A program made the position numbers and the translations under genes. From NCBI GenBank assembly GCA_021324255.1, contig JAJPJL010000126.1, positions 29,855-93,854 on the forward strand: a DNA stretch of 64,000 bases, given 5' to 3'. The stretch comes from Bacillota bacterium (GTDB taxonomy: Bacteria > Sysuimicrobiota > Sysuimicrobiia > Sysuimicrobiales > Segetimicrobiaceae). The notes beneath the pieces are model-generated. The model did no database searches and had not been told where the DNA came from. It saw only the letters and a list, made by a program, of their open reading frames with translations. Shown one piece after another: positions 16,808 to 55,679 of this stretch (the stretch's first letter is position 1; every line of letters begins with the position of its first letter).

Positions 16808-16853
16808 CGAGCGCCGCTGCGGCGCCATCGCGGGGCGCGCGCCGTGGTGGGGA

Positions 16854-17615: not shown

Positions 17616-17643
17616 GCACGGGCCTCCTTGTCCCGGGTCGCTT

Positions 17644-17675
17644 CAAGGAATTCTGGCCACGGGCCAGAATCCTTG
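17644..17675. promoter_or_regulatory. 32-bp near-perfect palindrome (CAAGGAATTCTGGCC-acg-GGCCAGAATCCTTG) in the divergent intergenic region
   Basis: Read directly from the sequence. It sits about 30-60 bp upstream of the Anbu-like start and about 75 bp upstream of the SLH porin start. Confidence 0.45.
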
Positions 17676-17749
17676 TGAGCCGGACGGGCACGCGTGACGC
17701 GCCACAGAGTCGCTCCAGGAGACGCCTTTCTTACGTGGATCGCATCGGC

Positions 17750-24350: not shown

Positions 24351-24476
24351 CGCGCGTCCGGCGCACCTCCGATCGCGAATCGCGGGCACGCCCCGGGCGC
24401 CGGCAACGACGCGCCGGCGGCGGGCGCGAACAGCGCGCCGGTCCGCGCGCGTACTCAGTGGGGAGGGGGTGACAGC

Positions 24477-28420: not shown

Positions 28421-30097
28421 ATGCGGTTCGCCGCCTGGCTCATCGACCTCGTCTACAATGCCCTCGCGCTGGCGGGCAACTCGGTGGCACGCGCCCGGGG
28501 GCGCCCCGTCTACGTGGTCGTCGATCTCTCGGGCGAGTACCCCGAGCACCGGCCGCGCAGTCCATGGTGGGTGCGGCGGCGGCCCGAGAGCCTGGAGGAT
28601 CTTCGCGGGCGGCTGCGCCTGCTGGCCGCCGATCCCGCGGTGGCCGGCATCGTGGTGACCGTGTCGGACCTGCGCGCCGGGCTGGGCGCCGTGCAGAGCC
28701 TCCGCCGCGCGCTGGCGGGCGTGCGCGCCGCGGGCAAGCGCGTGATCGCGTACCTGCCCGAGGCCTCCACGCACGTCTACTACGCGGCCAGCATCGCGGA
28801 TACGGTGATCATGCCGGAGAGCGGGACCTTGAACCTCGTCGGCCTCGCGCTCGAGGCGACGTTTCTCGGCGACGCGCTCGAGCGGATCGGCGTCGCGGGC
28901 GAGTTCGAGCAGATCGCCGAGTACAAGACCGCCGTGGAGCCGTTTGTTCGCGGGACGATGCCGGCGCCGATGCGGGAAGCGCTGAACGCCGTCTTGGACT
29001 CCGTCTACGACGACGTGATGGCCGCGATCGCGGAGGCCCGGCGGATCGCGCCCGCCGATCTCCGGCGCGCGGTGTGCGGCGCGCCGCTCCCCGCCGGCGC
29101 GGCCCGTGACGCCGGGCTCATCGACGCGATGCTGTACGAGGACGAGCTCCCCGCGTACCTGGCGGCAGGCAACCGCGCTCCCGCGCTCCTCCCGTGGGCG
29201 ATCGTCCGCCGCCGCCTGCGGCGGCCGCTCCGCCGGCCCGGGGCGGGCCCGGCGATTGCGGCGATCACCGTCCGCGGCCCGATCCACATGGGCGAGAGCC
29301 GCCCGCGGCCGTTCGGGGTGCCCCCGCTGTTTGGCGCCGCGGAGACCGCCGGGCACGCGACCGTCATCCGCGCCATCCGCGCGGCGGAGCGCGATCGCCG
29401 GTTTGGCGCCATCGTGCTCGCCATCGATTCGCCCGGCGGATCCGCGCTGGCGTCGGATCTCATCTGGCGGGCGGTCGCGCGCGCGAATCGCGCCAAGCCC
29501 GTCGTCGCGTTCCTCGGCAACGTCGCCGCCTCCGGCGGCTACTACGTGGCCGCGGGGGCCCGCCGGATCGTCTGCCTGCCGGGCACGCTGACCGGCTCGA
29601 TCGGCGTCATCGGGGGCAAGTTCAACGTCCGCCGCCTTGCGGAGCGCGCCGGCGTCCACCGTGAGCTGCTGGCCCGCGGCGAGGCCGCGGCGCTGTTCTC
29701 GCCGTTCGTGCCGTTCTCGGCGGCCGACCGGCGGCGTGTGCGCGCGCTGATGGAAGGCGTCTACGAGCGATTCGTGGCGCGGGTCGCCGACGGACGGGGT
29801 CTCGCGCTCGACGCCGTGCGCGCCGTCGCCAGAGGCCGCGTGTGGACCGGCCGCCAGGCCCACGGCCACGGCCTCGTGGATCAGCTCGGCGATTTCACGG
29901 ACGCGGTGGACGCCGCCAAGCAACTGATGGGCGTCGCGGCGTCGAGCCGCGTGCCGGTGGTCCACGTCCGCGTCCCGAACGCCGTCGCCGTCTCCCGGCC
30001 CGCCGCCTCCGTGCAGCGTCTCCTGGCGCCCGGCCTCGCGGCGCTCCTCGACGAGCCGATCCTCACGCTGCTGCCCTGGGAGATATCGATCCGGTAG
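28421..30097 (+). CDS. sppA: Signal peptide peptidase SppA (S49, 67K type, two domains)
   Basis: Two ClpP/crotonase-like domains. The second has the catalytic GNVAASGGYY serine motif. The ATG at 28421 is preceded by GGAGAGACGGG. Confidence 0.85.
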   Translation: MRFAAWLIDLVYNALALAGNSVARARGRPVYVVVDLSGEYPEHRPRSPWWVRRRPESLEDLRGRLRLLAADPAVAGIVVTVSDLRAGLGAVQSLRRALAGVRAAGKRVIAYLPEASTHVYYAASIADTVIMPESGTLNLVGLALEATFLGDALERIGVAGEFEQIAEYKTAVEPFVRGTMPAPMREALNAVLDSVYDDVMAAIAEARRIAPADLRRAVCGAPLPAGAARDAGLIDAMLYEDELPAYLAAGNRAPALLPWAIVRRRLRRPLRRPGAGPAIAAITVRGPIHMGESRPRPFGVPPLFGAAETAGHATVIRAIRAAERDRRFGAIVLAIDSPGGSALASDLIWRAVARANRAKPVVAFLGNVAASGGYYVAAGARRIVCLPGTLTGSIGVIGGKFNVRRLAERAGVHRELLARGEAAALFSPFVPFSAADRRRVRALMEGVYERFVARVADGRGLALDAVRAVARGRVWTGRQAHGHGLVDQLGDFTDAVDAAKQLMGVAASSRVPVVHVRVPNAVAVSRPAASVQRLLAPGLAALLDEPILTLLPWEISIR

Positions 30098-30158
30098 CGT
30101 CGGGCGCGGTGCGTGTCGCGCCCCGGCCGCCGGGCCTGACGACGGCGATCCGCGCCGG

Positions 30159-30176
30159 CGGGCGCGAGGGCGCCCG
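30159..30176. terminator. GC hairpin (CGGGCGC-gagg-GCGCCCG) between convergent sppA and nanE
   Basis: A 7-bp perfect stem with a 4-nt loop, in the 157-bp convergent gap. Confidence 0.35.
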
Positions 30177-30254
30177 CGTCAAACGCGCACACGGCCGCCC
30201 CCAACGACTCGATTCGGGGCCCGTCGAGCCCGCACAGGAGGGAGGTGCCCCGCA

Positions 30255-30953
30255 CTATGCCTCGCCGGCCGCGCGCGCGATCGCGTGGACGAACCGCTCC
30301 GTGATCGCCTCCGGCATGGTGATGGCCCGGCCCACGACCACCGCCCACGCGCCGGCCCGGAGCGCCGCCACGGCCTCCTCGGGGTTCGTGATGCGGCCCT
30401 CGGCGACGACCGGCACCGCAACCTCCCGCGCGAGCGCCCGCACCAGGTCGAGATCGGGGCCGGCCGTCTCGTCGCTGCGCGGCGTGTAGCCCGCCATCGT
30501 CGTGGCGACGAGATCGGCGCCGTTCGCCGCCGCCGCGCGGCCCTCGTCCAGGGTCGATACGTCGGCCATGACCGGGAGGCCACACTCGGCGTGGATGCGG
30601 CCGATCAGCGCGGGGAGCGGATCCGCCGCCTCGTCCGCGTCGCGCTCTTGCGTGGCCTGGACGGCGATGAGGTCGGCGCCGGCGTCGGCCAGGGCGCGGG
30701 CTTCCGCAAACGTGGGCGTGATGTACGCGGTCCGACCGCGCAGCTTGTAGAGCCCGATGACCGGCACGTCGACGACCCGCCGGACCGCCGCGACATCGGC
30801 GGGTCCGTCGATCCTCAGGCCCGCGGCGCCGCCGAGCACGGCGCAGCGGGCGAGCGCCGCGATCATCGCGGGGTCGCGCAGCGGACTGCCCGGCAGCGCC
30901 TGACACGACACGATCAGCTTGTGGCGCAGCCGGTCCCGCCAGCCCGGCGTCAC
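30255..30953 (-). CDS. nanE: N-acetylmannosamine-6-phosphate 2-epimerase
   Basis: KLIVSCQALPGSPL motif. About 232 aa from the GTG at 30953, which overlaps the upstream stop (GTGA). The ORF-track N-terminal extension is rejected. Confidence 0.85.
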   Translation of the reverse strand: MTPGWRDRLRHKLIVSCQALPGSPLRDPAMIAALARCAVLGGAAGLRIDGPADVAAVRRVVDVPVIGLYKLRGRTAYITPTFAEARALADAGADLIAVQATQERDADEAADPLPALIGRIHAECGLPVMADVSTLDEGRAAAANGADLVATTMAGYTPRSDETAGPDLDLVRALAREVAVPVVAEGRITNPEEAVAALRAGAWAVVVGRAITMPEAITERFVHAIARAAGEA

Positions 30954-31951
30954 GACGGTCGCTCCTCGGCGTTGCGGAGCGCCCACGTGGCGGCGAGCAG
31001 GGCGAGGCGCTCCGGGGTCGGCGTCACGTCCGCGGCCTGCAGCGCCAAGAGCAGCGCGCCGGCCGCGGGCTCGTAGCGAGGCGGCACCACGGCGGCGCCC
31101 GGGACCTGCGCCGCGAGGGCGAGGCGGAACGGCTCGAGCACGATCGCGCCGGCGTCGAACACCCCGCCGACGGGCGCGACCGCGGTTGCGCCGTCGGGCC
31201 AACGGAGGCGGCGGATCACGGCCACGGCCAGCGCCGCCAGCGACGCGGCCGCGTGCTCCACGATGCCGCGGGCGACCTGGTCCCCCGCCGCCGCCGCCGC
31301 GGTTACGGCGGGCGCAAGCCCGGCGATGCGGCGCCGGTCCAGCTGCCCGGCGTAGTAGGCGATGGGGATGGCCTCCAGGTTCATGCCCCCCACGGCCGGG
31401 ATCCGCGCGGTGAGCGCGGTCGCGGGCCCGCTGCCGTCGACGGCCCGGAGGGCCGCGTGCACCGCCGCCCGGCCGAGGGCAAAGGCGCTGCCATCGTCGC
31501 CAAAGAGGTATCCCCAGCCGCCGGCGCGGGCGTCGATGCCCCGGGCATCGCGGCCCAGGGCCACGGAGCCCGTGCCGGCGATCACCGCCACGCCCGGACC
31601 ACCGGCGAGCGCGCCGGCCAGCGCGATCCGGGCGTCGTTGTCCACGCCGATCGTGCGCGCCCGGAGCACCTCGCGGACCACTTCTTCGAACGCGCGTGAG
31701 CGGTCGGTGTTGACATTGATGCCCGTCATGCCGAACTGCGCCGCGCGAAACTCGACGTCCCCGAGCCGGGCCGCCCGCAGCGCCGCGGCGAGTGACGTCG
31801 CGACCGCCTCGCGCGCCCGCGCCCGTCCGCCGGGTGCGAGGATATGGTTACTGGGACCGCCGCGACCGATGCCCAGCACCGCGCCGTCGATCGTGGCCAC
31901 GGCGCAGAGGGTACTCGATGCTCCGCCGTCGACTCCGAGCACATAGTCCAT
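30950..31951 (-). CDS. BadF/BadG/BcrA/BcrD-type ATPase, N-acetylglucosamine (or MurNAc) kinase-like
   Basis: LGVDGGASST...GVDNDARIALAG...IAGTGS...GGWGYLFGDDGS motifs of the eukaryotic-type GlcNAc kinase family. Confidence 0.75.
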   Translation of the reverse strand: MDYVLGVDGGASSTLCAVATIDGAVLGIGRGGPSNHILAPGGRARAREAVATSLAAALRAARLGDVEFRAAQFGMTGINVNTDRSRAFEEVVREVLRARTIGVDNDARIALAGALAGGPGVAVIAGTGSVALGRDARGIDARAGGWGYLFGDDGSAFALGRAAVHAALRAVDGSGPATALTARIPAVGGMNLEAIPIAYYAGQLDRRRIAGLAPAVTAAAAAGDQVARGIVEHAAASLAALAVAVIRRLRWPDGATAVAPVGGVFDAGAIVLEPFRLALAAQVPGAAVVPPRYEPAAGALLLALQAADVTPTPERLALLAATWALRNAEERPS

Positions 31952-32076
31952 AGCGCGGCTCCGTTTCGCAGGCGCGTACCCCGGGTCCTTTGCCCGGCGG
32001 CCTCACCTGCACCCGGATGACCACACGGGAGACCGCGACCTGCTCCAGGAGCACGCGTGGCGCCCGATACCCCGTC

Positions 32077-33222
32077 CTAGGCCGGTGGGCGGGGGAGGAG
32101 CGCACGCGCCACCGCCTCGGCGATCCGCGGGCGCAGCGCCAGGATCTCCGTGCGGTCGCGGCCCAGATGGATCGCGTTGGCGAGCAGCACGATCGCCAGC
32201 TCGTGCTCCGGATCGATGACGAGCGCGGTGCCGGTGAAGCCGGTGTGGCCGTACGCACGCGCCGACAACGCGCCGCCCCACCAGCCCTGCGTCCCCGTGA
32301 GGGCCCAGCCGAGTCCCCGCGCCGCGTCGCCGGAGGTCTGCGGCGCCGTCGCCTCCCTCACGAGTTCCGGGCTCAGCACCCGCGAGCCCGGACCGCGACC
32401 TCGTGCGAGCCACATCCTCGCGTACTCGATGAGGTCGCCCGCCGTCCCAAACAACCCCGCGTGCCCGGACACCCCGCCCATGGCGTGAGCGTTGCCGTCG
32501 TGGACCTCGCCCCAGACGAGCGTCGTGCGCCAGCGGTGGTGGTGGTGGCGTGCCGCCTCGGCGGCGGGGCGCTCCCGCTCGGACGCCGTCATCTGCTGCT
32601 CGATCCCCGTGCCGTCCTCGGTGGGCGCCACGCGCGCGCGCAGGGCCGCCGGCGGACGGTAGCGAGTGTCGCGCATCGCGAGCGGCGCAAACACGCCGTC
32701 ACCGGCCGCCTCGTCGATCGGCCGGCCGAGCGTCCGGCGCGCAATCTCGCCGAGGAGAATAAATCCGACGTCGCTGTACACCACGCGCGTGCCGGGCGGC
32801 GCCTCGAGCGGCGTGGCCGCGGCCCGGGCGATGATCGCGTCGTACCCCTCGGCCTCGAGGTAGAACGGGATCCACGCCGGGAGGCCGGAGGTGTGAGCGA
32901 GCAGGTGCCGCAGCGTGACGTCGCGATGCGGGAACTCGGGCAGGTGCCAGGCGGCGGGATCGTCGAGGCCGAGCCGGTGCTGCATCACCGCCTGCAAGAT
33001 CAACGGTGTGGCGGCCACCACTTTGGTCAGCGAGGCGAGATCGTAGATCGTCGCCGTGGTCGCCGGGCGGGGCGCCGGCCGGCGGGCGGCGAGCCCCTCG
33101 GCGTGCCGCAGCACGACTTCGCCGCGGTAGAGCACGGCGAGCACGGCGCCGGGGTACGCGCGTCCGACGCCGTCTGCCAGCAGGCGGAGCGCGGGGGCGA
33201 ACGCGCTCGCGGGAGCGGTCAC
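32077..33222 (-). CDS. Serine hydrolase of the beta-lactamase/transpeptidase superfamily (class C/AmpH-like)
   Basis: SxxK motif (ASLTK), a YSD/YxN-like motif and a later HTG triad. The GTG at 33222 overlaps the anmK stop (GTGA). Confidence 0.75.
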   Translation of the reverse strand: MTAPASAFAPALRLLADGVGRAYPGAVLAVLYRGEVVLRHAEGLAARRPAPRPATTATIYDLASLTKVVAATPLILQAVMQHRLGLDDPAAWHLPEFPHRDVTLRHLLAHTSGLPAWIPFYLEAEGYDAIIARAAATPLEAPPGTRVVYSDVGFILLGEIARRTLGRPIDEAAGDGVFAPLAMRDTRYRPPAALRARVAPTEDGTGIEQQMTASERERPAAEAARHHHHRWRTTLVWGEVHDGNAHAMGGVSGHAGLFGTAGDLIEYARMWLARGRGPGSRVLSPELVREATAPQTSGDAARGLGWALTGTQGWWGGALSARAYGHTGFTGTALVIDPEHELAIVLLANAIHLGRDRTEILALRPRIAEAVARALLPRPPA

Positions 33223-34583
33223 ACCCGGTTCCGCGCCGCGCCCCGGAGCGCCCCGGGCGGCGGCCACGTCCACTTCCCGAGCAGCGACGCGTGCCGCGCG
33301 CCGGTGACTCGGGGCAGGTTGCCCGCCATGCCCATCACGGTCGCGTGCCCCAGCAGCGCGAACGCGATGGCTTCCTTGGCGCTGGACGGCACGCCGAACT
33401 CGTCGATGCGCCGCAGGCGAATCGGCGCGATGTCCCGCGCGAGGCGCCGCATCAGCACCCGGTTATGGACGCCGCCGCCCGCGGCGACGAGGTCGACGAT
33501 GGCGTGACGCGGCAGGACGTACCGTCTGATGTTGAGGCTCACGGCGTCCGCCGCGAACGCCGTCGCCGTCGCGATGAGGTCGTCCGCGCCGAGGCGGCGC
33601 CATCGGGCGAGCAGCGCGCGCAGGAACGGTTGGCCGAACTGCTCGTGCCCGGCCGTCTTCGGCGGCGGGGCCGTGACGAAGGGATCGTCGAGCAGTTCCC
33701 GGAGCAACGCGTCGTGCACCCGGCCGCGGGCGGCCCGGTTCCCGCCGCGGTCGAAGGTCTCGGCGCCGCGGGTGAAGTGCCGCACCAGCCCGTCGATGAC
33801 CATGTTCGCGGGCCCGCAGTCGAACGCGGTCACGTCGGCGCGGCGGGCGCCCGCCGGCAGGACCGTCAGGTTCGAGATCCCGCCGAGGTTGAGCGCGATC
33901 CGCCCAGCCGGGCCCGCCAGGAGCGCGAGGTCCGCGTACGGCACCAGCGGCGCCGCCTGTCCCCCGGCCGCGATGTCGGCGGCCCGAAAATCGGCGATGA
34001 CCGGACGCCCGGTCCGCTCCGCGATGACGGCGGCCTCGGCCAGCTGCAACGTAGCCGCGCGCCCCCACGGATCCGCGGCGTCCGGAACGCCCACGTGGGC
34101 GACCGTCTGCCCGTGGGAGGCGATGAAATCCACGCTGTTCATCCGCCGGCCGGCGCGCCGCGCGGCGGCGGCCGCGGCGGCGGCGAAGTACTCGCCGAGC
34201 AGGTAATGGAGCGAGGCGAGCCGCTGCGTGGTCACCGGCTGCGTGCACACGTCCAGGACGCGCTGGCGTACCTCCGCGGGATAGGGCACCGTCGTGTATG
34301 CGACGAGCCGTACGCGCGGCGGCCCCGGCTCCGCGTCGCGCCGGCTCCGCGTCGCGGCGGCACGCCCGGCGGCGCCGTCGGTGACCTCGACGAGGGCCGC
34401 GGCCACGCCGTCGGCGCTCGTCCCCGAAATCAGGCCGATGATGTGCTTCGTCCGCTTCGCGCGGATCGTCTCCAAGGCGCGCGCCCCGGTCGCGAAAGGG
34501 GCGCCGGAGCCCGCGGCGGCGAGGCTCGCCGCCGCAGGCCCCCGGTTCCCCGGCGCGGATCCGCCGCGGCGTGTGGGGCTCAC
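33219..34583 (-). CDS. anmK: Anhydro-N-acetylmuramic acid kinase
   Basis: IIGLISGTSADG N-terminal motif and AnmK-wide similarity. The GTG at 34583 overlaps the murQ stop (GTGA). An alternative TTG start at 34475 gives the canonical N-terminus. Confidence 0.85.
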   Translation of the reverse strand: MSPTRRGGSAPGNRGPAAASLAAAGSGAPFATGARALETIRAKRTKHIIGLISGTSADGVAAALVEVTDGAAGRAAATRSRRDAEPGPPRVRLVAYTTVPYPAEVRQRVLDVCTQPVTTQRLASLHYLLGEYFAAAAAAAARRAGRRMNSVDFIASHGQTVAHVGVPDAADPWGRAATLQLAEAAVIAERTGRPVIADFRAADIAAGGQAAPLVPYADLALLAGPAGRIALNLGGISNLTVLPAGARRADVTAFDCGPANMVIDGLVRHFTRGAETFDRGGNRAARGRVHDALLRELLDDPFVTAPPPKTAGHEQFGQPFLRALLARWRRLGADDLIATATAFAADAVSLNIRRYVLPRHAIVDLVAAGGGVHNRVLMRRLARDIAPIRLRRIDEFGVPSSAKEAIAFALLGHATVMGMAGNLPRVTGARHASLLGKWTWPPPGALRGAARNRV

Positions 34584-35485
34584 GGGTCCGCCCGCCCGAC
34601 TGCCCCGCGGACGCTTCCGGCCTCCTGGAGCGCGCGGGCCGCGGCGTCGGGGTCGAGGCCGCGGGCGAGCATGACGATGGCGACCGGCACCCGGCCGCCG
34701 GCGCGCCCGAGGGCGTCCGCTGCCGCGGCGGCGCCGGCTCCGGTCGCCGCCGAAACGATGCGCAGCGCCCGGCGGCGCAGCTTGTCGTTGGTGGCCTGCA
34801 CGTCGACCATCAGGTTGCCGTAGACCTTGCCGAGCTGCACCATGGTCAGCGTGCTCAACATGTTCAGCACGAGCTTCTGCGCCGTGCCGGCCTTGAGTCG
34901 CGTGCTGCCGGCGATGATCTCCGGGCCCACCAGCGGCGCGATCGTGAGCGCGCAGGCCGCTTCCAGCGAGGACGCGGGCGAGCACGCGACGCCGATCGTG
35001 ACCGCGCCGCGCTCTGCGGCGCGCCGCACCGCCCCCAGGACAAACGGCGTCTCGCCGCTCGCGGCAACACCCACGACGGCGTCGGACGGGCCGGCCCCCA
35101 GCGCATCCATCTCCCGCGCTCCCTGCGCGGCGTCGTCCTCCGCGCCTTCGATCGCGTGGAGCATCGCGCCCGGCCCGCCGGCGATGACGGCTTGCACGAG
35201 GTCCGGCGGCGTGCCGAACGTCGGCGGGCACTCGGCCGCGTCCAGCACGGCCAGGCGGCCGCTCGTGCCCGCGCCGACGTAGATGAGGCGGCCGCCGCGC
35301 CGCAGCGCCTGCGCGATGCGGCGCACCGCCTCGGCGATCTGCGGCAGGGTCGCCCCCACGGCGCCGGGCACCAGCCGGTCTTCGTCGTTCATGAGCCGGG
35401 CCTGCTCGATGACCGGCAGCAGGTCGAGCGCCCGTGTCCGTTCGTTGACCGACTCGGTCAACGGTTCGCGCGGCGACGATGTCAT
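34580..35485 (-). CDS. murQ: N-acetylmuramic acid 6-phosphate etherase
   Basis: SIS domain with GAGTSGRL and the MurQ-specific N-terminus (ERTRALDLLPVIEQARLMNDED). Confidence 0.9.
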   Translation of the reverse strand: MTSSPREPLTESVNERTRALDLLPVIEQARLMNDEDRLVPGAVGATLPQIAEAVRRIAQALRRGGRLIYVGAGTSGRLAVLDAAECPPTFGTPPDLVQAVIAGGPGAMLHAIEGAEDDAAQGAREMDALGAGPSDAVVGVAASGETPFVLGAVRRAAERGAVTIGVACSPASSLEAACALTIAPLVGPEIIAGSTRLKAGTAQKLVLNMLSTLTMVQLGKVYGNLMVDVQATNDKLRRRALRIVSAATGAGAAAAADALGRAGGRVPVAIVMLARGLDPDAAARALQEAGSVRGAVGRADP

Positions 35486-35555
35486 GGGGCCTCCGTGCCG
35501 TCGTTCGACATGGGTGCCCGCCGAGCCGGTGCGTCGCGCCCACGCGGGCCCTCGA

Positions 35556-36467
35556 TCATAGGCGCAGGCGGGGATCCAACACGTCCCGCAGCCCGTCCCC
35601 GAGCAGGTTGAACCCGAGCACGATGAGGGAGATCGCCGCCCCCGGAAATACTGCGGTCCACGGCGCCATCGTCATGAACCGCCGCGCCTCGGCGAGCATG
35701 TTGCCCCAGGACGGCGTCGGCGGTTGCGTGCCCAGGCCGAGGAAGCTCAGGGCCGACTCGGTCAGGATCGCGAAGGAGAGGCTCAGCGATGTCTGCACGA
35801 TGATCGGCGCCAGGATGTTGGGGACGATGTGGTGCAGCAGGATGCGCGGCACGCCGGCGCCTTGCGCCCGCGCCGCCTCCACGTACTCGATGCCGCGCGC
35901 CTGGAGCACGCTGCCTCGCGTCACCCTCGCGAACTGCGGCGTGTACACGATGCCGATCGCGGCGACGAGCACGGGCGGCGTCGTCCCCGCGACGGCCATG
36001 ATGGCGATGGCGAGCAGGACCGCCGGAAAGGCGAAGACGACGTCCATGCTCCGCATCAACACGCTGTCGAGCGCGCCGCCGTAGTATCCGCTCACGACGC
36101 CGATGGTCCCGCCCGCGCCGAGGGCGAGCGCCACGGACGCGAACGAGACGCCGAGCGAGACGCGGGAACCGTAGAGGAGCCGGCTCAGGATGTCGCGGCC
36201 GAACTGGTCCGTGCCGAACGGATGCCCCGCGCCGGGCCGGGCCAGCAGCGCGGTCGGGGCCATGGCGGCCGGATCGGCCGGAGCGAACAGCGGCGCGCCG
36301 GCCGCCGCCACGAGGTACGCGGCGACGATGAGCGAGCCCGCCACGGCGGTCGGGGTGCGGGCCAGGGCCCGGACGCGCGACGGACGGCGGCGGGTCGCGG
36401 CGCCGCCGGTCGCGCGTCCCCGTCGCGCCGCGGCGAGCGCCGGCTTCGGCGCGGGGGCGGTGCTCAT
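35556..36467 (-). CDS. ABC transporter permease, DppC/OppC-like
   Basis: Six transmembrane helices and an EAA-type motif (VEAARAQGAG). The ATG at 36467 overlaps the upstream stop (ATGA). Confidence 0.85.
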   Translation of the reverse strand: MSTAPAPKPALAAARRGRATGGAATRRRPSRVRALARTPTAVAGSLIVAAYLVAAAGAPLFAPADPAAMAPTALLARPGAGHPFGTDQFGRDILSRLLYGSRVSLGVSFASVALALGAGGTIGVVSGYYGGALDSVLMRSMDVVFAFPAVLLAIAIMAVAGTTPPVLVAAIGIVYTPQFARVTRGSVLQARGIEYVEAARAQGAGVPRILLHHIVPNILAPIIVQTSLSLSFAILTESALSFLGLGTQPPTPSWGNMLAEARRFMTMAPWTAVFPGAAISLIVLGFNLLGDGLRDVLDPRLRL

Positions 36468-37411
36468 CGGTAGCGCACGCGTGGATCCGCGAGCGCATAG
36501 AGCACGTCCACGGCCAGGTTGGTCAGCACGAAGAGGCCCGCGATCAGCAGGACGACGCCTTGGACGACGGGGTAGTCTCGCTGGCCGATGGCGTTCAGCG
36601 CCAGGCGGCCCATGCCGGGCAACGCGAACACCTCCTCGATGACGACGGTGCCGCCGAGCAGGTAGCCCGCCTGGTAGCCGATGACGGTGATCACCGGGAT
36701 CAGCGCGTTGCGCAGCGCGTGACGGTTGACGACGATCCGGGCGAGCAGACCTTTGGCCCGCGCGGTCCGCACGTAGTCTTCCCCCAGGACCTCGAGGAGC
36801 GAGGACCGGACGAACCGCATGAAGACCGCGGCGAGCGACACGCCGAGCGAGATCGCCGGCAGCGCCATGATCGTGAGGTTCGCGAGGGGGTTGGCCGCCA
36901 GCCCGACGTACGTGCCGATGGACGCGATCGGAGAGTTGGCCAGGAGGAGCAGGAGCATCGCGGCCAGCCAGAAATTCGGGATGCTGAGCCCGAGGAGACC
37001 GCCCACGGTGACCAGCGTGTCCGCCGCCGTCCCGCGGCGTAGGGCCGCGACGATGCCGATGGGGATCCCGAGCCCGAGCGCGATGACGAGGGCCAGCACG
37101 GTGATCTCGATGCTGATCGGAAGGCGTGCCAGGATGTCGGGCAGCACCGGGCGGCTCGTGCGCAACGAGACGCCGAAGTCGCCCTGCAGGACGCGGCCGA
37201 TCCAATCCACGTATTGCAGCGGCAGGGGCTTGTCGATGCCGAAGAGGCGCCGGAGCTCGGCCATCTGGGCCGGCGTCATGGCCACCTGGGTGCCGAGAAA
37301 CATTTGCACCGCGTCGCCCGGCAGCAGCCGGACGAGCAGAAAGACGACGATCGATACTCCCCACAGCACCGGCAGCAGCCCGAGGAGCCGGCCGGCGAGA
37401 TAGCCGGTCAC
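36464..37411 (-). CDS. ABC transporter permease, DppB/OppB-like
   Basis: Typical DppB fold and motifs (VRTARAKGL). Confidence 0.85.
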   Translation of the reverse strand: MTGYLAGRLLGLLPVLWGVSIVVFLLVRLLPGDAVQMFLGTQVAMTPAQMAELRRLFGIDKPLPLQYVDWIGRVLQGDFGVSLRTSRPVLPDILARLPISIEITVLALVIALGLGIPIGIVAALRRGTAADTLVTVGGLLGLSIPNFWLAAMLLLLLANSPIASIGTYVGLAANPLANLTIMALPAISLGVSLAAVFMRFVRSSLLEVLGEDYVRTARAKGLLARIVVNRHALRNALIPVITVIGYQAGYLLGGTVVIEEVFALPGMGRLALNAIGQRDYPVVQGVVLLIAGLFVLTNLAVDVLYALADPRVRYR

Positions 37412-37537
37412 CCGGCGCGCTCCGGTCGCGCGCGGCCACCCGGCCGCCGGTTGCCGAGGTGCGGGGGCGTCACGATTGGCTGCGGGGGAGACGCGCCGGC
37501 GGGCGCGGCCATACGGCGCGCCCGCCGGCAGCGCAGG

Positions 37538-39058
37538 TCAGCGCTGGATCGAGGTATCCTGCAGGAGCTCCAGGGATCCCGTCGGGATGACGCGGAAGCC
37601 CTTGACGTAACTCTGCAGCACCTGTGTCGTGTACGGCGTGTACAAAAACACCGCCGGGGCGTCCGTGACCAGGGCCCGCTGGACGTCATCGTAGATGGGC
37701 TTGCGCTCGGCCACGGCGACGTGAACGCGGCCGCGGTCGAGCAGCTTGTCCACCGCGGGGTCCTTGAAGAGGAAGTTGTTGACGGCGCCCGTGCTGTAGA
37801 ACGTGCGGTACAGGAAGCGGTCGGGGTCTGGATCGCCGCCCCGCAGTTCGACCATCGTGTCGAAATCGCGCTTCACCCAGCGGTTGATGTACGTGCCCCA
37901 TTCCACGTTGTCGATCGTCGGGTTCAATCCCACGGCCCGGAGTTGCGCCTGGATGATCTGCGCCACGGCGAGCCCGCCCTCGTACGTCGGCGAGGCGACG
38001 ATGTTGAACGCGGCGCCGGCCGCGCCGGCCTCCTGGAGCATCTGCTTGGCCTTCGCCGGGTTCGTGTGGTACTCGGGGAACGTGGAGACGGGAAGCGCGT
38101 ACAGTTTGTCGGGCGCCGGGATGGGACCGCTGACCTGGCCGAACCCGAACTCCGCCGCGGCCACAATCGCCTGGCGGTCGATCGCATAGGCGATCGCGTC
38201 GCGCACCTTGGCGTTGGTGAACGGGGGGTGGGTCGTATTGAACGAGAAGATGCGCAGGTTGAGACTCGGGGCCTGCAGCACCTGGAGCGACTTGTCGCCC
38301 TGGGCCTGCTTGATCACGCTGCCGTCCGAGATCGTGGCCATGTCCAGGCTCCGGCTGCGCAGGCCGGCCAGCAGGGATGCCTCTTCGGGCACGATCCGGA
38401 TCACGACCTCATCGACCTTGGGATTGCCGCGCTTGAAGTAGTTCGGGTTCCGCACCAGGCGCATGTAGTTGTCCGGCACCCACTCCGCCAGCATGAACGG
38501 CCCGGTTCCCGCCTCGGTCTTTTGGAGATCGCCGTTCTTGAGCACGGCCGCCCGTTCCACGATCGCGCTGTTGCCGGAGGCGAGGCCGGCGAGGGTGCTG
38601 GCGAGCGGGTACTTGAGGTGGATGCGCACCGTCAACGGATCGACGGCGGTGACCGTGTCCACCGCGTCAAGATACGACCGCGCCGGCGATGCGGTCTTGG
38701 GGTCCAGGATCCGCTGGATCGTGAACACCACGTCGTCCGCGGTCAACGGGGTGCCGTCGTGAAAGCGGACGCCCGGGTGAAGGTGGAAGACGTACGTCCG
38801 GTTGTCCGGCGTGTCCCACGAGCTCGCCAGATCGCCGACGACGTGCAGCCCGGGATCGTACGTCACGAGCTTGTTGTAGAGCAGATCGATCCGGCGGAAC
38901 GAGGAGAACGCCGTGACCTTGTTCGGATCGAGGCCGACGACCTCCTGATCCACGCCGAGCGTCAGCGTCACCTTGGCCGGCGCGGCATACGTCCGAGCCG
39001 CCAGCGGCAGCGCCAGCACGAGCGTCAACACCACGATCAAGAACCGCGTTGCGCGCAT
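37538..39058 (-). CDS. ABC transporter substrate-binding protein, family 5 (DppA/OppA/MppA-like). Candidate muropeptide binder.
   Basis: Signal peptide plus family-5 SBP architecture. It is the first gene of the murein-recycling operon. Confidence 0.8.
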   Translation of the reverse strand: MRATRFLIVVLTLVLALPLAARTYAAPAKVTLTLGVDQEVVGLDPNKVTAFSSFRRIDLLYNKLVTYDPGLHVVGDLASSWDTPDNRTYVFHLHPGVRFHDGTPLTADDVVFTIQRILDPKTASPARSYLDAVDTVTAVDPLTVRIHLKYPLASTLAGLASGNSAIVERAAVLKNGDLQKTEAGTGPFMLAEWVPDNYMRLVRNPNYFKRGNPKVDEVVIRIVPEEASLLAGLRSRSLDMATISDGSVIKQAQGDKSLQVLQAPSLNLRIFSFNTTHPPFTNAKVRDAIAYAIDRQAIVAAAEFGFGQVSGPIPAPDKLYALPVSTFPEYHTNPAKAKQMLQEAGAAGAAFNIVASPTYEGGLAVAQIIQAQLRAVGLNPTIDNVEWGTYINRWVKRDFDTMVELRGGDPDPDRFLYRTFYSTGAVNNFLFKDPAVDKLLDRGRVHVAVAERKPIYDDVQRALVTDAPAVFLYTPYTTQVLQSYVKGFRVIPTGSLELLQDTSIQR

Positions 39059-39193
39059 CGCTCACCCCCGTCGTTGCGTCCCCGGGCCCGGCGCGAGCCG
39101 GATGCCGGGTCGGCCATCGCGTACCTCAGCGTACCAGGCGCCGGCGCATCCCGGAGCGGGCCCCGGCCCGATCGGCCGCCCCGCCGCGCGCCG

Positions 39194-39691
39194 TCACCCC
39201 GTGCCGTGGTGCGCCGGTGCGTCCGGCCGGATGGGCCCCGTCGTCTTCCGGTAGAGCCGTTCCGTGATCCCCCGGCGCACGTAGTTCGGGATCTCGCCGA
39301 TCCGCTCGTATCCCCGCCGCTCGTAGAACCGCGCGGCGGCGTCGTTGCGGGTCCACGTGAGCAAGAACACGTTCGGGCCGTGGGCCAGGATGTCATGCTC
39401 CGCGGCGTCCATCAGCCGCGCCCCCACGCCCCGGCCCTGGACGTCGGCCGCGACGCCGATGGCCCGGACGTAGCCGCTATGATCGAACGTGCCGCGCAGG
39501 TGGTACACGATGAATCCCACGAGGCGACCCTCTGCCTCCGCGACGTGCGCGGACGCGGCGCCGCAGAGCGCCCCGGCGAAGAGCGCCCGGGCGTCATCGC
39601 GGGTCGCCCCGTACGCCCGCCAGAGCGGGAGATCCAGCATGATCGCGATGCACGGCTCGATGTCGGCGTCGCGCAGCGGCCGGATGATCAC
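39194..39691 (-). CDS. GNAT family N-acetyltransferase
   Basis: Acetyl-CoA binding motif (QGRGVGARLM). The GTG at 39691 is preceded by GGAGAAAGG. The longer ORF-track start would collide with the nagA start. Confidence 0.7.
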   Translation of the reverse strand: MIIRPLRDADIEPCIAIMLDLPLWRAYGATRDDARALFAGALCGAASAHVAEAEGRLVGFIVYHLRGTFDHSGYVRAIGVAADVQGRGVGARLMDAAEHDILAHGPNVFLLTWTRNDAAARFYERRGYERIGEIPNYVRRGITERLYRKTTGPIRPDAPAHHGTG

Positions 39692-39770
39692 GCGACACCT
39701 TTCTCCGGCGGGCCGAACGGCGCCTGCCGCCGCAGGAGGCGCGCGCGGCCGGCCTGAAGCAGATCGCGTC

Positions 39771-40925
39771 ATGATCGTCGCCGCCGGCACCATCATCGCC
39801 CGCGAACGGAATCTCAGCCCGGGGTTCGTGCAGATCGACGGCGGACGGATCGTGCGCGTGCGCGGCGGGGAGCCTCCGGCGCCGGATGGAGCGCCGCTGC
39901 TGCGGTTCCCCGACGGCACCGTGATTCCCGGGATGATCGACCTGCAGGTGAACGGCGGCGCGGGCGTGGATTGCGGCCGGTGCGTGCCCGCGGATTACGA
40001 CGTGCTGGGACGGTACCTGGCGGGCACGGGGGTCACGGCGTACCTGCCGACGATCACGAGCGCGCCGCTCGAGGACATGCGCCGCGCCGGCGAGGTCGCG
40101 GCCGGCGCCATGGCCCGCGAGACCGCCCTGCCCGCGATTCTCGGGGTGCATCTCGAGGGGCCGTACCTGAACCCGCTCCGCCGCGGCGCGCATCGCGCCC
40201 AGGACCTCCGCCCGCCGTCGGTGCCGGAAGCGGTCGAGACCCTGCGCCGGCTCTCCGGCGCCGTGCGCGTGGTGACGCTCGCGCCGGAACTCGAGGGCGC
40301 GGAGGCTCTGGTGCGCGCGCTCGCCGAGCGGGAGGTCGTCGTGGCGCTCGGGCACACGGACGCCGGCTACGACGAGATTCGGGCCGCGGCGCAGTGGGGC
40401 GCCAGGCTCGTGACACACGTGTTCAACGCGATGCGCGGCCTCCACCACCGGGAGCCCGGGGCCGCGGGCGGCGCCCTGCTCACGCGCGGCCTCGTGGCGA
40501 GCGTGATCGCGGACGGCATCCACGTGCATCCCGCCATCCTGGGACTGATCGCCCGCGTGGCCGGCCCCGGCCGTATCGCGCTCGTCACGGACGCCATCTC
40601 CGCCGCCGGCATGGAACGGGGCAGCTTTTCGCTCGGCGGGCGGGGCATCGAAGTGCGGGACGGCGTACCGCGCCTGCCCGACGGCACGATTGCCGGCAGC
40701 GTGCTGCAGATGGACCGCGCGGTGCGCACCTTCGCGGCGGCCGCTGAGATCGGCCTGCGCGAGGCGATTCACTCCGCGACGGCCGTGCCGGCGCGGCTGC
40801 TGCGGCTCGCGCGCAAGGGCCAGATCGCCGAAGACTACGACGCCGATCTGGCGGTCCTCGGCCGCGACGGAAGCGTCGCGCTGACGCTCGTGGGCGGGCG
40901 GGTGGCGTATCAGCGCCGGCCGTGA
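39771..40925 (+). CDS. nagA: N-acetylglucosamine-6-phosphate deacetylase
   Basis: Amidohydrolase motifs (GMIDLQVNGGAG; HLEGPYLNP; HTDAGYDE; HVFNAM). About 384 aa. Confidence 0.9.
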   Translation: MIVAAGTIIARERNLSPGFVQIDGGRIVRVRGGEPPAPDGAPLLRFPDGTVIPGMIDLQVNGGAGVDCGRCVPADYDVLGRYLAGTGVTAYLPTITSAPLEDMRRAGEVAAGAMARETALPAILGVHLEGPYLNPLRRGAHRAQDLRPPSVPEAVETLRRLSGAVRVVTLAPELEGAEALVRALAEREVVVALGHTDAGYDEIRAAAQWGARLVTHVFNAMRGLHHREPGAAGGALLTRGLVASVIADGIHVHPAILGLIARVAGPGRIALVTDAISAAGMERGSFSLGGRGIEVRDGVPRLPDGTIAGSVLQMDRAVRTFAAAAEIGLREAIHSATAVPARLLRLARKGQIAEDYDADLAVLGRDGSVALTLVGGRVAYQRRP

Positions 40926-41224
40926 CCTGCTCCCCAAAATCCGAACAATGACGCGGTTTCGCTTGACAACCTACGGGATCTTTGGTAATCGACATTAAAA
41001 CCGAGGGAGTGTGCCTAGGGTTCCGCGGCCCGTAGGGCCGGCCCGGACCGAGCGGCGCAGGCGCCAGCGGGCGCTACACCGTCGGGACAAAAGCCCGAGG
41101 GAGAGGTTCCTCTGAACAGGATCGCTCCCCCGGGTTTTTCTATGTTCGCCCCGGGGAGCCTCCAACCGGCGTGCCAACGGCCGCCCGCCTCGCAGCGGGC
41201 GGCGTGCGTGGGGGGTGGACCGCG

Positions 41225-44200
41225 ATGTCCGGCCTATATGACCCGAGGTTCGAGCACGACTCCTGCGGCGTCGGCTTTGTGGCGACGACCGGCGGACGCA
41301 GCCACGCGCCGCTGTCGATGGCGCTGGAGGCGCTCGCCAACCTCGCGCATCGCGGCGCGGTGTCGGCCGATGGCAAGACCGGGGACGGCGCGGGGGTGCT
41401 CACCCAGCTGCCGTACCGCCTACTGCTGCCCGAGCTGGCTCGGCGCGGCGTGCGGGTCTCCCGGCACAGCGATCTCGGCGTCGCCATGGCGTTCTTGCCC
41501 CGCGAAGACGGCGCGAGGGCGCGGATGCGCGCCCTGGTCGAGGACGCCGTCGCGCGGGAAGGGCTCGTGTTCTTTGGATGGCGTCCGGTCCCGGTCGCAT
41601 CCGGCGCGCTCGGCGCGGAGGCCGAGCGGACCCGGCCCGACATCGCGCAGGCCCTGATCGGCCGCTCCGGCGCGCGCGCCGGCGACGACTTCGAGCGCGC
41701 GCTGTTCCTCGTTCGCAAGGGCGTGGAGCGGCGGCTCGGGGAGGAATCGATCGCGGGCTGCCTGCCGTCGTGCTCGCATCGCACGGTGGTCTACAAGGGC
41801 CTGTGCGTCGCTCCCCAGCTCCGGCGCTTCTATGCCGACCTCCGCGACCCATCGTTCGAGACGGCGCTCGCGGTCTTTCACCAGCGGTACAGCACGAACA
41901 CGTTTCCCAGCTGGCCGCTCGCGCAGCCGTTTCGGCTGCTCGCCCACAACGGCGAGATCAACACGTTGGGGGGCAACGTCAACTGGACCCGCGCGCGGGA
42001 GGCCGACCTGTGCGCGCCGCGCTGGCGAGCGCGGATCCGGGATGTGGTGCCGGTGATCCAGCCGGAGGGCAGCGACAGCGCGATGCTGGACAACGTGCTG
42101 GAACTCCTGGTGCGGTCCGGGCGCGACCTGGTCCACGCGATGATGATGCTGGTGCCGGAGGCCTTCGAGGCGGCGCCGGAGATGGACCCGGGCGTCCGTG
42201 CCTGGTACGAGTATCATGCCGGGTTGTGCGAGCCGTGGGACGGCCCGGCGGCGCTCGCGTTCTCGGACGGCCGCGTGGCCGCGGCCGCGCTCGACCGGAA
42301 CGGCCTCCGCCCCGCGCGGTACGTGATCACACACGACGGCCTGGTGGTCGTGGCGAGCGAGGCGGGCGTGATCGAGCTCGACCCGGGACGCATCGCGGAG
42401 AAGGGGCGGCTCGGCCCGGGCCGGATGATCGCCGTGGACACGGCGGCAGGCCGGATCCTCACGGACGAGGTGATCAAGCGAGAGGCGGCGGAGCGGCGAC
42501 CCTACGCGCCCTGGGTCGCCGCGGCGAGGACGCGCATGGCCGCGGACGACACGCCGCCCGTCCCTGACGATGCCGGGCTGGCCCGGCGGCTCGCGGCGTT
42601 TGGCTACACCGAGGAGGAGCTCCGGCGGATCCACGCGCCGATGTTCCTCGAGGCCAAGGATCCCGTGGGCTCGATGGGCGACGACACGCCGCTCGCCGTG
42701 CTGTCGCCGCGGCCCCGGCTGCTGTACGCGTACTTCAAGCAGCGGTTCGCCCAGGTGACCAACCCGCCGATCGATCCGCTGCGCGAGCGGCTGGTGATGT
42801 CGCTCGTGACCCTGCTCGGCCGCCGCGGCGACTGGCTTGAGGAAACGCCGGACCACGCGCGCCTCGTGGAGATCGCCTCCCCGTTGCTGACCGCGGCCGA
42901 GCTGAGCGCGCTCTCAGCACTTCCGGAGGAAACGCTCCGCGTGCGCACGCTGCCGGCGCTGTTCGCGGCGGCGGGCGGCCCCGGCGGTCTGGAGCGCGCG
43001 CTCGAGCGGCTCTGCGGCGCGGCCGCGCGCGAGGCCGAGGACGGGGCGACGCTCCTCGTGCTCTCCGACCGCGGCACCGATCGGGCGTACGCGCCGATCC
43101 CGATGCTCCTCGCCGTGGGCGCCGTGCACCACGCGCTGATTCGTCGCGGCGTACGGATGCGCGTGAGCCTGATGGCCGAGACCGGGGAGGCGCGGGACGT
43201 CCACCACGTGGCGGCGCTCATCGGGTACGGGGCGAGCGCGGTGTGCCCGTATCTCGCGCACGAGATGATCGCCCGGGAGGCACGCCGGGCCGGCGCGGAT
43301 CCCGCGGTCTACCTCGCCCGGCATCGCGCGGCCATCGAGGCCGGTCTCCTCAAGATCATGTCGAAGATGGGGATCTCCACGGTGTCGAGCTACCACGGCG
43401 CGCAGGCCTTCGAGGCCGTGGGGCTCGACCGGGCGCTCGTCGAGTGCGCGTTCGCGGGCACGCCCTCGCGGCTTGGCGGCATCGGGCTCGGCGAGATCGC
43501 CGACGACGTGCTCGCCCGCCACCGGCGGGCCTACGGCGGCGAGGAGCCGGCCTTGGACGACCCCGGGCTGTTTCGGTTCCGCAAGGACGGCGAGTACCAC
43601 GCGTTCCACCCCAACGTCCTCCGCACGCTCCACCGGCTCGCGCTCGACGGCGGCGACGAGGCGTACCTGGCATACGCGTGGGAGGTCATGCACCGGCCGC
43701 CGACCGCGCTCCGCGACCTCCTGGAATTTCGGGGCGGCGTCCCCATCCCGGTGGAGGACGTGGAGCCCGCCGCGGCGATCGCCCGCCGGTTTGTCGTCTC
43801 GTCGATGTCCCACGGATCGCTGAGCAAGGAGGCGCACGAGACGCTGGCGATCGCGATGAACCGGCTCGGCGCAAAGAGCAGCAGCGGCGAGGGCGGGGAG
43901 GATCCCGACCGGTTCGCGCGGCGCCCGAACGGCGACTGGCCGAACTCGGCGGTCAAGCAGGTGGCGTCGGGGCGGTTCGGCGTCACCCCCGCGTATCTCG
44001 CCGCGGCGCAGGAACTGGAGATCAAGATGGCGCAGGGCAGCAAGCCCGGCGAAGGCGGGCAGATCCCGGGCGCGAAGGTCTCCGAGGAGATCGCGCGGAT
44101 CCGCCACACCCAGCCGGGGATCGCCCTGATCTCGCCGCCGCCGCACCACGACATCTACAGCATCGAAGACCTGGCGCAGCTCATCTACGATCTCAAGCAG

Positions 44201-53956: not shown

Positions 53957-54537
53957 GTCCGCCCCGCCTGCACGTCGATACGAGTACCGGGGCCCCCGGT
54001 TCGCCACGCGGCATGAAGAAACCCTCAGTCACTGGCCTGCATGTTCGCCGATCCCCGTATTAGGTACTCATAGTCGGACCCTATAAGGCGGCTCCTCACA
54101 GCGTCCCGGAGCGCCGTGTGCGGGACCGCCGCGGCCCGGCGCACAAGTTGATCCGCTCAAGCCGCCGTCGCGCCTCACGCCTTGGCCGGCGGGGCGGCTG
54201 TCTGGGCCTGACCCAGCGTGGCGAACAGGCCGGCACGCTTCTTCTCTCGTAGACTCCGGGTCCCAGGCTGGAACCGTAAGGGGGTCACCTCGACAACAGA
54301 AGGGAGGCGGCGTTCGCTCGTCCGGCCCCAGCGTCGCGTTGCTCCGCGCGTCGCTTCGCTCCGTTCACGACCACCGATCGCGGCGTTCACCATGGAGCGA
54401 AACGAGTGTTCATGATGAGCGAAACCAGCATCCCGTGCGAGGCGGACTGCTTGCTCCCGAAATTGCGGCGGATACTAACGGTGTTTGCCTGGGAGCTATT
54501 GGGCCTCAGCAAGACCTAGGACCATCGCGCTCCTGAG

Positions 54538-54583: not shown

Positions 54584-54614
54584 TATATCAATGTAGACAA
54601 CTTTCCAAGAGACC

Positions 54615-55676: not shown

Positions 55677-55679
55677 CAC

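Follow-up and report, generated by a model that had tools for sequence, protein, structure and literature searches.

A predicted salvage cluster for peptidoglycan fragments in Sysuimicrobiota, with a binding-protein-dependent importer encoded without ATPase genes

Within a 64-kb stretch of DNA (the window) from an uncultured soil member of the candidate phylum Sysuimicrobiota, nine minus-strand genes (30255-39691) and a divergent plus-strand nagA form a cluster that is likely to be a salvage unit for peptidoglycan (murein) fragments, which would be imported by a binding protein and two permeases. The imported substrates are probably fragments containing N-acetylmuramic acid (MurNAc) or its 1,6-anhydro form (anhMurNAc), with peptides attached. 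The biochemistry is the known MurNAc route of the Escherichia coli type, and the cluster amounts to a coherent variation on that pathway, not to a novel type of system. It differs from the known route in its uptake module, in its cytoplasmic enzyme resembling PBP4B, in the gathering of the genes into one unit, and in the lack of ATPase genes. Peptidoglycan recycling has been well mapped in only a few model bacteria, and the only two known wall-fragment routes of the ATP-binding cassette (ABC) type are MppA-Opp and YejBEF-YepA. Together with its conserved counterparts in four phyla, the cluster suggests a third importer family that takes up wall fragments by means of a binding protein.

Enzymes and conserved neighbourhood of the cluster

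The window has a G+C content of about 72%, and reading frames were picked by third-position GC (GC3) phasing and start-codon context. The gene models of the cluster agree with the public gene calls on the 424-kb contig JBAIIF010000025.1 of assembly GCA_037025025.1, where the binding-protein sequence has an exact match; the window corresponds to about 85.5-149.5 kb of that contig, and the cluster therefore sits well inside a long contig. Its nearest relatives were found in metagenome-assembled genomes (MAGs) that bear the names "Bacillati bacterium ANGP1", "Bacillota bacterium Centralia_MAG" and Candidatus Fervidifonticultor, the last of which is placed by NCBI in the candidate phylum Sysuimicrobiota (alias CSP1-3), an uncultured lineage of soil and hot springs (PMC11604079; PMC11962464). 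Protein families were assigned with Pfam and NCBIfam profiles, the curated NCBIfam cut-offs being used for equivalogs. A search with the binding protein found 969 homologues, and synteny was inspected around 79 fetched loci encoding relatives. A Pfam family was confirmed for every gene of the cluster (Table 1). An earlier reading made from the letters alone (the sequence-only reading) had described nine minus-strand genes running from a GNAT gene down to nanE, with nagA divergent, and this layout was borne out by GC3 frame analysis, reading of the open reading frames (ORFs), Pfam and NCBIfam.

Three enzymes of the cluster score above curated equivalog cut-offs: AnmK (NF007148, 417 bits, cut-off 387), MurQ (TIGR00274, 343.3 bits, cut-off 302; NF003915, 390 bits) and NagA (TIGR00221, 275.5 bits, cut-off 225.65). 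The cytoplasmic route from anhMurNAc through MurNAc 6-phosphate (MurNAc-6P) and N-acetylglucosamine 6-phosphate (GlcNAc-6P) to glucosamine 6-phosphate (GlcN-6P) is therefore complete, in agreement with the sequence-only reading. NanE, the epimerase of N-acetylmannosamine 6-phosphate (ManNAc-6P), likewise passes its curated subfamily cut-off (NF002231, 248.4 bits, cut-off 189). The remaining sugar enzyme had been labelled a GlcNAc kinase. Its BadF-type family was retained, but it reaches only 94.7 bits with the NagK_SO3507 equivalog (cut-off 370), and its closest counterpart is the Clostridium-type MurNAc/GlcNAc kinase MurK, whose structure (PDB 8zo3) it matches over its full length (residues 1-305, E = 4.7e-36). 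MurK of C. acetobutylicum phosphorylates both MurNAc and GlcNAc (PMC5790795), and the same dual specificity is predicted here.

The serine hydrolase had been described as class-C-like. The beta-lactamase fold was upheld, and the protein is more specifically a homologue of PBP4B (YfeW) that lacks an export signal. PBP4B is its best NCBIfam match (159 bits; equivalog cut-off 385), the alignment beginning only at position 47 of the model. Compared directly with E. coli YfeW, the protein showed 34% identity over 368 amino acids (E = 5e-52) with the SLTK (SxxK), YSD and HTG motifs aligned. The domain begins at residue 16, the N-terminus is not hydrophobic, and no upstream start brings in a hydrophobic segment. 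This leaves no room for an export signal and so predicts a cytoplasmic enzyme, a location that in turn implies the import of fragments still carrying peptides. Homologues in Sphaerochaeta and Halobacteroidaceae likewise lack an export signal, their domains beginning at residues 19 and 10, respectively. PBP4B itself has been listed as a minor DD-carboxypeptidase (PMC4916385).

The best structural match of the GNAT protein is E. coli YpeA (E = 3.4e-6), with 29% identity in a direct comparison (E = 6e-11); to our knowledge, YpeA has no known role. Identity with the glucosamine (GlcN) N-acetyltransferase GlmA was ruled out, as PDB entries 5kf1 and 5kga, which we take to be GlmA (PDB name "Predicted acetyltransferase"), matched only at E = 5-6e-3, no more than the shared GNAT fold would give. 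GlmA of C. acetobutylicum, with which the window protein shares only the fold (E = 6e-3), is a precedent for a GNAT enzyme in wall-sugar salvage (cited in PMC4680927). The GNAT gene adjoins the binding-protein gene in 11 of 11 and 24 of 27 loci of the two nearest clades. In a Halobacteroidaceae MAG (L082, 5543-8572, plus strand), the GNAT found with the importer and the PBP4B-like hydrolase is the N-terminal domain of a 1009-residue protein whose other ~870 residues have no Pfam match.

Table 1. Genes and RNA element of the cluster (positions in the window; aa, amino acids)
Feature	Position	Strand	Support
nanE, ManNAc-6-phosphate 2-epimerase, 232 aa	30255-30953	-	Pfam NanE 5.2e-48; NF002231
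BadF/BcrAD-family sugar kinase, MurK-like MurNAc/GlcNAc kinase candidate, 333 aa	30950-31951	-	Pfam BcrAD_BadFG 1.7e-37
PBP4B (YfeW)-like serine hydrolase, beta-lactamase/peptidase S12 fold, 381 aa	32077-33222	-	Pfam Beta-lactamase 2.1e-63
anmK, anhydro-N-acetylmuramic acid kinase	33219-34475 (public call to GTG 34583)	-	Pfam AnmK 1.4e-89; NF007148
murQ, MurNAc-6-phosphate etherase, 301 aa	34580-35485	-	TIGR00274; GGAGG upstream of ATG
permease C, DppC/OppC-type ABC permease, 303 aa	35556-36467	-	Pfam BPD_transp_1 1.4e-32 + OppC_N
permease B, DppB/OppB-type ABC permease, 315 aa	36464-37411	-	Pfam BPD_transp_1 8.9e-34 + BPD_transp_1_N
G+C-rich stem-loop directly 3' of the binding-protein stop codon	37491-37534	-	RNA fold
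family-5 substrate-binding protein, 506 aa	37538-39058	-	Pfam SBP_bac_5 4.9e-95
YpeA-like GNAT acetyltransferase, 165 aa, first gene of the unit	39194-39691	-	Pfam Acetyltransf_1 3.8e-15
nagA, GlcNAc-6-phosphate deacetylase, 384 aa	39771-40925	+	TIGR00221

In Sysuimicrobiota and in a Sphaerochaeta, murQ and anmK adjoin the gene for the orthologous binding protein. Its neighbour in a Dictyoglomaceae MAG is anmK, and in a Halobacteroidaceae MAG it is the gene for the PBP4B-like hydrolase. In the closest clade, where the binding protein is 74% identical or more, every informative locus has the gene content of the window: murQ, anmK, the kinase gene and nanE occur in 6/6, nanE being restricted to this clade, and the divergent nagA is retained in 9/9. 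The next clade, which comprises Ca. Fervidifonticultor and relatives (57-68% identical), carries murQ/anmK in 14-16 of 21 loci; here the content is conserved but shuffled, in the order MurR-GNAT-binding protein-permease B-permease C-hydrolase-kinase-MurQ-AnmK, so that a regulator of the MurNAc-6P type, MurR, leads the unit. The Sphaerochaeta locus encodes MurR, MurQ, AnmK, the importer, DppD, DppF, an enzyme resembling L-Ala-D/L-Glu epimerase, the GNAT protein and the hydrolase, and the epimerase-like gene implies that stem peptides reach the cytoplasm. The Dictyoglomaceae locus encodes GntR, AnmK, a PIG-L deacetylase, the importer, GH20 and a Mur ligase. Since the association recurs in four phyla with the gene order shuffled, the link between the importer and the cell wall is not a coincidence of one genome, and it supports the import of cell-wall fragments.

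Proposed route and origin of the fragments

In the proposed route, lytic transglycosylases and other autolysins would release anhydro-muropeptides or MurNAc-peptides. Slt-type lytic transglycosylases generate anhydro-MurNAc ends, and one with TPR repeats is encoded 18 kb from the cluster (12854-15262, plus strand). The binding protein would capture the wall fragments and the two permeases would import them, with ATP hydrolysis supplied by one or more nucleotide-binding subunits encoded elsewhere in the genome, because none is encoded in the operon. In the cytoplasm, the PBP4B-like hydrolase would remove or trim the stem peptide. Its activity may be that of a MurNAc-L-Ala amidase, as in Bacillus subtilis AmiE (which we take to be a member of the same beta-lactamase/PBP4B-like family), or that of a DD-carboxypeptidase, as in E. 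coli PBP4B. AnmK would convert anhMurNAc to MurNAc-6P, and the MurK-like kinase would phosphorylate MurNAc and GlcNAc, possibly also N-acetylmannosamine (ManNAc). MurQ would then split MurNAc-6P into GlcNAc-6P and D-lactate, NanE would turn ManNAc-6P into GlcNAc-6P, and NagA would yield GlcN-6P for wall synthesis or glycolysis. The GNAT enzyme may re-acetylate de-N-acetylated sugars or modify the peptide. The same machinery could serve both the recycling of the cell's own wall and the scavenging of foreign wall debris.

These two uses share the same biochemistry, and the strongest alternative to own-wall recycling, which we regard as a substantial possibility but the less probable one, is that the unit lives mainly on foreign debris, drawing carbon and nitrogen from the amino sugars and peptides of necromass. 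According to PMC11962464, CSP1-3/Sysuimicrobiota thrive in deep soil where energy is limited, and they encode enzymes that degrade peptidoglycan. Feeding on debris would also fit NagA, which leads to catabolism, the lack of re-use enzymes of the Mpl or MurU type in the cluster, the MurK-like kinase and NanE, which widen the intake to non-anhydro MurNAc, GlcNAc and ManNAc, and the paralogous importer with an S9 peptidase that adjoins the cluster in relatives. However, AnmK acts specifically on 1,6-anhydro-MurNAc, which lytic transglycosylases such as the Slt protein of the window produce and which is typical of own-wall turnover. GlcN-6P also feeds wall synthesis, and the two roles are compatible. 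Either way, the cluster shows how carbon and nitrogen of cell walls may be reclaimed or scavenged by a phylum that is abundant in deep soil but uncultured.

E. coli offers the closest comparison for the enzymes. Its MurQ, AnmK and NagA are orthologous to those of the window, its YfeW resembles the hydrolase and its YpeA the GNAT protein; its anmK and nagA genes are unlinked, whereas AnmK, NagA, the kinase and NanE are all encoded in one cluster here. The E. coli arrangement murQ-murP-yfeW (PBP4B) has been described (PMC5061867). In E. coli K-12 (L105, NC_000913.3, 2545773-2553221), murR stands next to murQ-murP-yfeW and ypeA follows ~2.3 kb beyond yfeW, divergent from amiA; three families of the cluster (murQ, yfeW/PBP4B and ypeA) thus lie within ~6.4 kb. 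The E. coli divergon contains murR, which the clade of the window lacks and the Fervidifonticultor clade has. Uptake in E. coli proceeds through the phosphotransferase system (PTS) protein MurP or through AmpG, in contrast to the binding-protein-dependent ABC system of the window, and the window hydrolase, unlike YfeW, has no export signal. The cross-phylum co-occurrence of these families suggests wall-recycling roles for YfeW and YpeA themselves. As the PBP4B-like hydrolase and the YpeA-like acetyltransferase are repeatedly tied to MurQ/AnmK, and their E. coli homologues are encoded near murQ, these roles are testable in a model organism.

In B. subtilis, the operon murQ-murR-murP-amiE-nagZ-namZ encodes secreted hydrolases, with uptake by a PTS (PMC8054146), and AmiE is an exo-MurNAc-L-Ala amidase (PMC8054146; PMC5061867). 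As in the window, MurQ is encoded together with hydrolases that process wall fragments. AmiE, NagZ and NamZ are secreted and free sugar enters through the PTS, whereas the window has a predicted cytoplasmic hydrolase and neither NagZ nor NamZ.

Energy supply and family of the importer

The importer has the core of a PepT (Dpp/Opp/Nik) system, namely a family-5 binding protein and two BPD_transp_1 permeases with EAA-type loops (EAARAQG in permease C, RTARAKG in permease B), but the two ATPase genes (ABC_tran plus oligo_HPY) that such systems encode with their permeases are missing. A Walker A motif search of the 64-kb window detected no Dpp/Opp-type ATPase, and tblastn with spirochaete DppD and DppF found nothing better; the only two ABC nucleotide-binding genes are of the exporter type (6114-7115) and sufC (56765-57601). 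The earlier statement that the importer comes without DppD/DppF genes thus stands. No ATPase gene can lie just outside in the same operon either, since the operon is bordered by a convergent sppA gene on one side and by the divergent nagA on the other.

The 79 loci were searched in the same way, by Walker A motif and by tblastn with DppD and DppF of the Sphaerochaeta orthologue. Within the 1.16 Mb searched, none of the ~45 orthologous loci of Sysuimicrobiota encodes a canonical PepT-class ATPase, and the Dictyoglomaceae-like and Halobacteroidaceae loci are without one too. Both spirochaete loci (L048, L049) encode canonical DppD and DppF (ABC_tran plus oligo_HPY) right after permease C, so that in Sysuimicrobiota the ATPase genes were either lost from the operon or never joined it. 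Among ~34 Chloroflexota-type loci, the only match was one partial ATPase gene upstream of the binding protein (L068). ABC genes located 2.6 kb upstream in L039 and L041 were rejected as importer ATPases, being generic proteins with ABC_tran only, ~30% identity to DppD/DppF and no PepT features.

The separation extends beyond this importer: the Sysuimicrobiota loci contain at least 53 Dpp-type permease pairs, and no canonical ATPase gene lies within ~10 kb of any of them. Several of these loci hold a second, paralogous Dpp-type importer, followed by an S9 peptidase and likewise devoid of ATPases, which may be a companion peptide importer. Its family-5 binding protein, two permeases and DPP-IV/S9 peptidase adjoin the salvage cluster in L024 (3169-9121), L033 (1770-7509) and L044 (13287-18815), all on the minus strand, and it is divergent from the cluster in L024 and L033. 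The window also contains a CUT1-type importer without an ATPase gene (21754-25829, plus strand), composed of two BPD_transp_1 permeases and an SBP_bac_1/8 binding protein (24351-25829); an FGGY sugar kinase comes next, the whole stretch covering 21754-27340 on the plus strand. The Liv-type importer of a related MAG, in contrast, has both of its ATPases in cis. As PepT and CUT1 importers lack their own ATPases and the Liv-type importer has them, the uncoupling is conserved and specific to certain importer families, not an artefact of assembly.

The importer may draw on a shared, MsiK-like ATPase, as the sequence-only reading suggested. MsiK and MsmX supply in trans CUT1 sugar importers that, like the CUT1 importer of the window, have no ATPase gene beside them; MsiK belongs to a MalK-like class, whereas the orphaned importer here is of the PepT type and the only candidate subunit found is a short PepT-class protein without oligo_HPY. 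A literature search turned up no case of ATPase sharing in the PepT family, and we know of no characterised one. PepT importers consistently lack ATPase genes across a whole candidate phylum, which suggests that importers of the peptide type, too, may share ATPases, as sugar importers are known to do.

The candidate is a solitary PepT-class ATPase of 256-298 residues, common in the Sysuimicrobiota lineage; among curated models, the first half of YejF, NikD, DppD and OppD match it best. The family includes the ABC genes of L040 and L050; the one near the L040 cluster has 41-43% identity to the ATP-binding domain of DppD and lacks oligo_HPY. A member (P0173) occurs in assembly VBAK01, a MAG that also holds an orthologous cluster (L011, binding protein 80% identical to that of the window), and others occur in MAGs from the sequencing project of the window. 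No PepT permease stands beside it in any context retrieved. It is a lead only, on account of three points that speak against it as the energiser. Wherever upstream sequence is available, an RND pump gene immediately precedes it, often with an overlap, and the order is MerR-MFP-RND-ATPase in loci that extend far enough; this constant coupling suggests a different job. PepT systems normally use two different ATPase subunits. It was not found in the MAG of the window when six family members were placed (P0173, P0217, P0202, P0199, P0159 and P0220), all of which come from other assemblies, some of them from the sequencing project of the window. Examples of 265-292 aa within L086-L104 are L089 8001-8810, L092 8001-8798 and L096 6001-6813. 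An MFS_3 transporter or DUF2848 sometimes comes next after the gene, and the joining of an ABC ATPase to a proton-driven pump operon is odd.

The requirement for two subunits instead favours a dedicated, unshared DppD/DppF pair encoded at a distant locus, as do the spirochaete orthologues with their canonical pair carrying oligo_HPY domains and the scope of the search, which covered 64 kb of one 424-kb contig of the MAG. We nevertheless hold such a pair to be rather unlikely: one remote pair for each importer would be an odd and repeated arrangement, given the permease pairs surveyed above, and the only PepT-class ATPase found in the lineage is the single short one.

The binding protein has a Sec-type signal peptide without a lipobox cysteine and reaches no NCBIfam equivalog. 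Its best solved structures are 5u4o (7.8e-53) and DppA (~1e-43). Permease C is matched best by Opp4C, Opp1C and NikC (248-279 bits) and permease B by Opp2B (312 bits). The proposed functional counterpart is YejBEF-YepA of Agrobacterium tumefaciens, an ABC importer of anhydromuropeptides for recycling (PMC9790009; PMC11509177). Both are PepT-family importers relying on a family-5 binding protein, wall-fragment import being predicted for the window, but they belong to different PepT subfamilies: the YejB- and YejE-type models give 134 and 90 bits, far below cut-offs, against 312 and 279 bits for Opp2B and Opp4C. The fused YejF ATPase is absent from the window, and the window importer is embedded in a catabolic operon.

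Several results weigh against the proposed salvage of wall fragments. MppA (3o9p) is a weaker match of the binding protein (5.8e-33) than the structures above, so the protein is not closest to MppA, as a member of an MppA-OppBCDF system would be; it is no nearer to MppA than to DppA or to structures without an assigned function. The enzymes NagZ, AmpD, LdcA and NagB were found neither in the cluster nor in the rest of the window. Around the more distant Chloroflexota homologues (~41% identity), GNAT is the only neighbour retained and cell-wall genes are absent; specificity for cell-wall fragments need not hold for the entire family, and wall-fragment import is not extended to these homologues. 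These Chloroflexota loci would suit an importer of an unrelated substrate (di- or oligopeptides, nickel, glutathione or an opine-like compound) that merely neighbours amino-sugar genes, as would the best curated matches of the importer, which are Nik, Opp, Gsi and Dpp models, all below cut-off, and the presence of AgaA, HbpA and DppA among the best solved structures. This reading is improbable, because murQ, anmK and the gene for the PBP4B-like hydrolase repeatedly accompany the importer in four phyla, in rearranged order, and a MurR-type regulator leads the unit in Ca. Fervidifonticultor. That the transporter is a decaying, non-working relic is scarcely credible, even though ATPase genes are missing in cis. 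Neither the binding protein nor the permeases are truncated, and their domains are intact; they are 56-98% identical across species and phyla, with the same arrangement in dozens of species-level MAGs. Conservation at this level indicates purifying selection and argues against decay.

Import of wall fragments being the preferred reading, a wider and much more speculative one, unlikely to hold in all its parts, may be put forward. The binding protein and two permeases would represent an uncharacterised cross-phylum family of PepT importers for (anhydro)muropeptides that is usually encoded without ATPases; in Sysuimicrobiota, one or a few solitary PepT-class ATPases, the counterpart of MsiK, would power all PepT importers in trans; and the cytoplasmic PBP4B-like hydrolase and the YpeA-like GNAT protein would be true recycling enzymes, the hydrolase replacing AmpD as the (anh)MurNAc-peptide amidase. 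If true, functions would be assigned to the poorly understood YfeW and YpeA of E. coli.

Operon anatomy and other features of the window

A single transcription unit from the GNAT gene to nanE is plausible. The starts of nagA and the GNAT gene are separated by a divergent gap of 79 bp. The sequence-only reading had reported four consecutive genes joined by GTGA or ATGA. Four start/stop overlaps are present in the genes as called (badF/nanE GTGA, anmK/hydrolase GTGA, murQ/anmK GTGA and permease B/permease C ATGA), but they do not join four consecutive genes, and the murQ/anmK overlap is doubtful. The 36-residue N-terminal extension of the called AnmK is not conserved among relatives, whose AnmK proteins start 11-17 residues ahead of the IIGLISGTS motif, and its GC phasing is non-coding; the overlap is therefore probably an artefact of gene calling, and the true anmK start is probably TTG 34475 instead of GTG 34583. 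With this start, the murQ-anmK gap would be ~104 nt, and the remaining gaps in the unit are 70-135 nt.

The stem-loop that follows the binding-protein gene has a folding energy indistinguishable from that of shuffled sequence (z = -0.72, in a G+C-rich context), and its support comes from position only: a strong stem-loop of unconserved sequence recurs at the same place, after the binding-protein stop codon, in most orthologous loci across phyla. It is probably an intra-operon attenuator or mRNA stabiliser, an ordinary feature familiar in binding-protein-dependent operons. A scan for promoter and terminator consensus sequences over 29800-41200 gave no matches and is uninformative at 75% G+C, and an Rfam scan over the cluster revealed no riboswitch or other RNA inside it. 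When the nagA/GNAT gap was compared across relatives, only short, variably spaced motifs were found to be kept (CTCCTGCG, GGCAGGCG and the ribosome-binding region CCGGAGAA).

Just beyond the cluster, between the nagA stop codon and a gene for the large subunit of glutamate synthase (~41171-45676), lies a well-formed aptamer of the ykkC/guanidine-I type (41004-41105, plus strand), which matches the full RF00442 model at 56.5 bits (below the gathering score of 63; E ~1e-9). Glutamate synthase genes are known to be preceded by ykkC variants that recognise ppGpp or PRPP, and the aptamer may be such a ppGpp- or PRPP-type variant instead of a guanidine sensor.

Elsewhere in the window, an NAGPA phosphodiester glycosidase (10338-13049) is encoded near the Slt gene, and a GHL10/DUF4985 protein at 4442-6109 on the minus strand. 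The region 15458-19579 holds three sizeable ORFs with coding-like GC phasing and no Pfam match (15458-16807, plus; 16854-17642, minus; 17150-19579, plus); they partly overlap, so that at least one is probably not a real gene. A Fic/DOC-family protein (3548-4045, plus strand) lies in a stretch of slightly lower G+C content. A more marked low-G+C island of 2.2 kb (54350-56600, 52-60% against ~70%) encodes an AbiEi/AbiEii type IV toxin-antitoxin pair (54615-55676 and 55680-56540) directly upstream of the suf operon (sufC, sufB/D, sufS at 61008-62288, and sufU), and was probably acquired horizontally.

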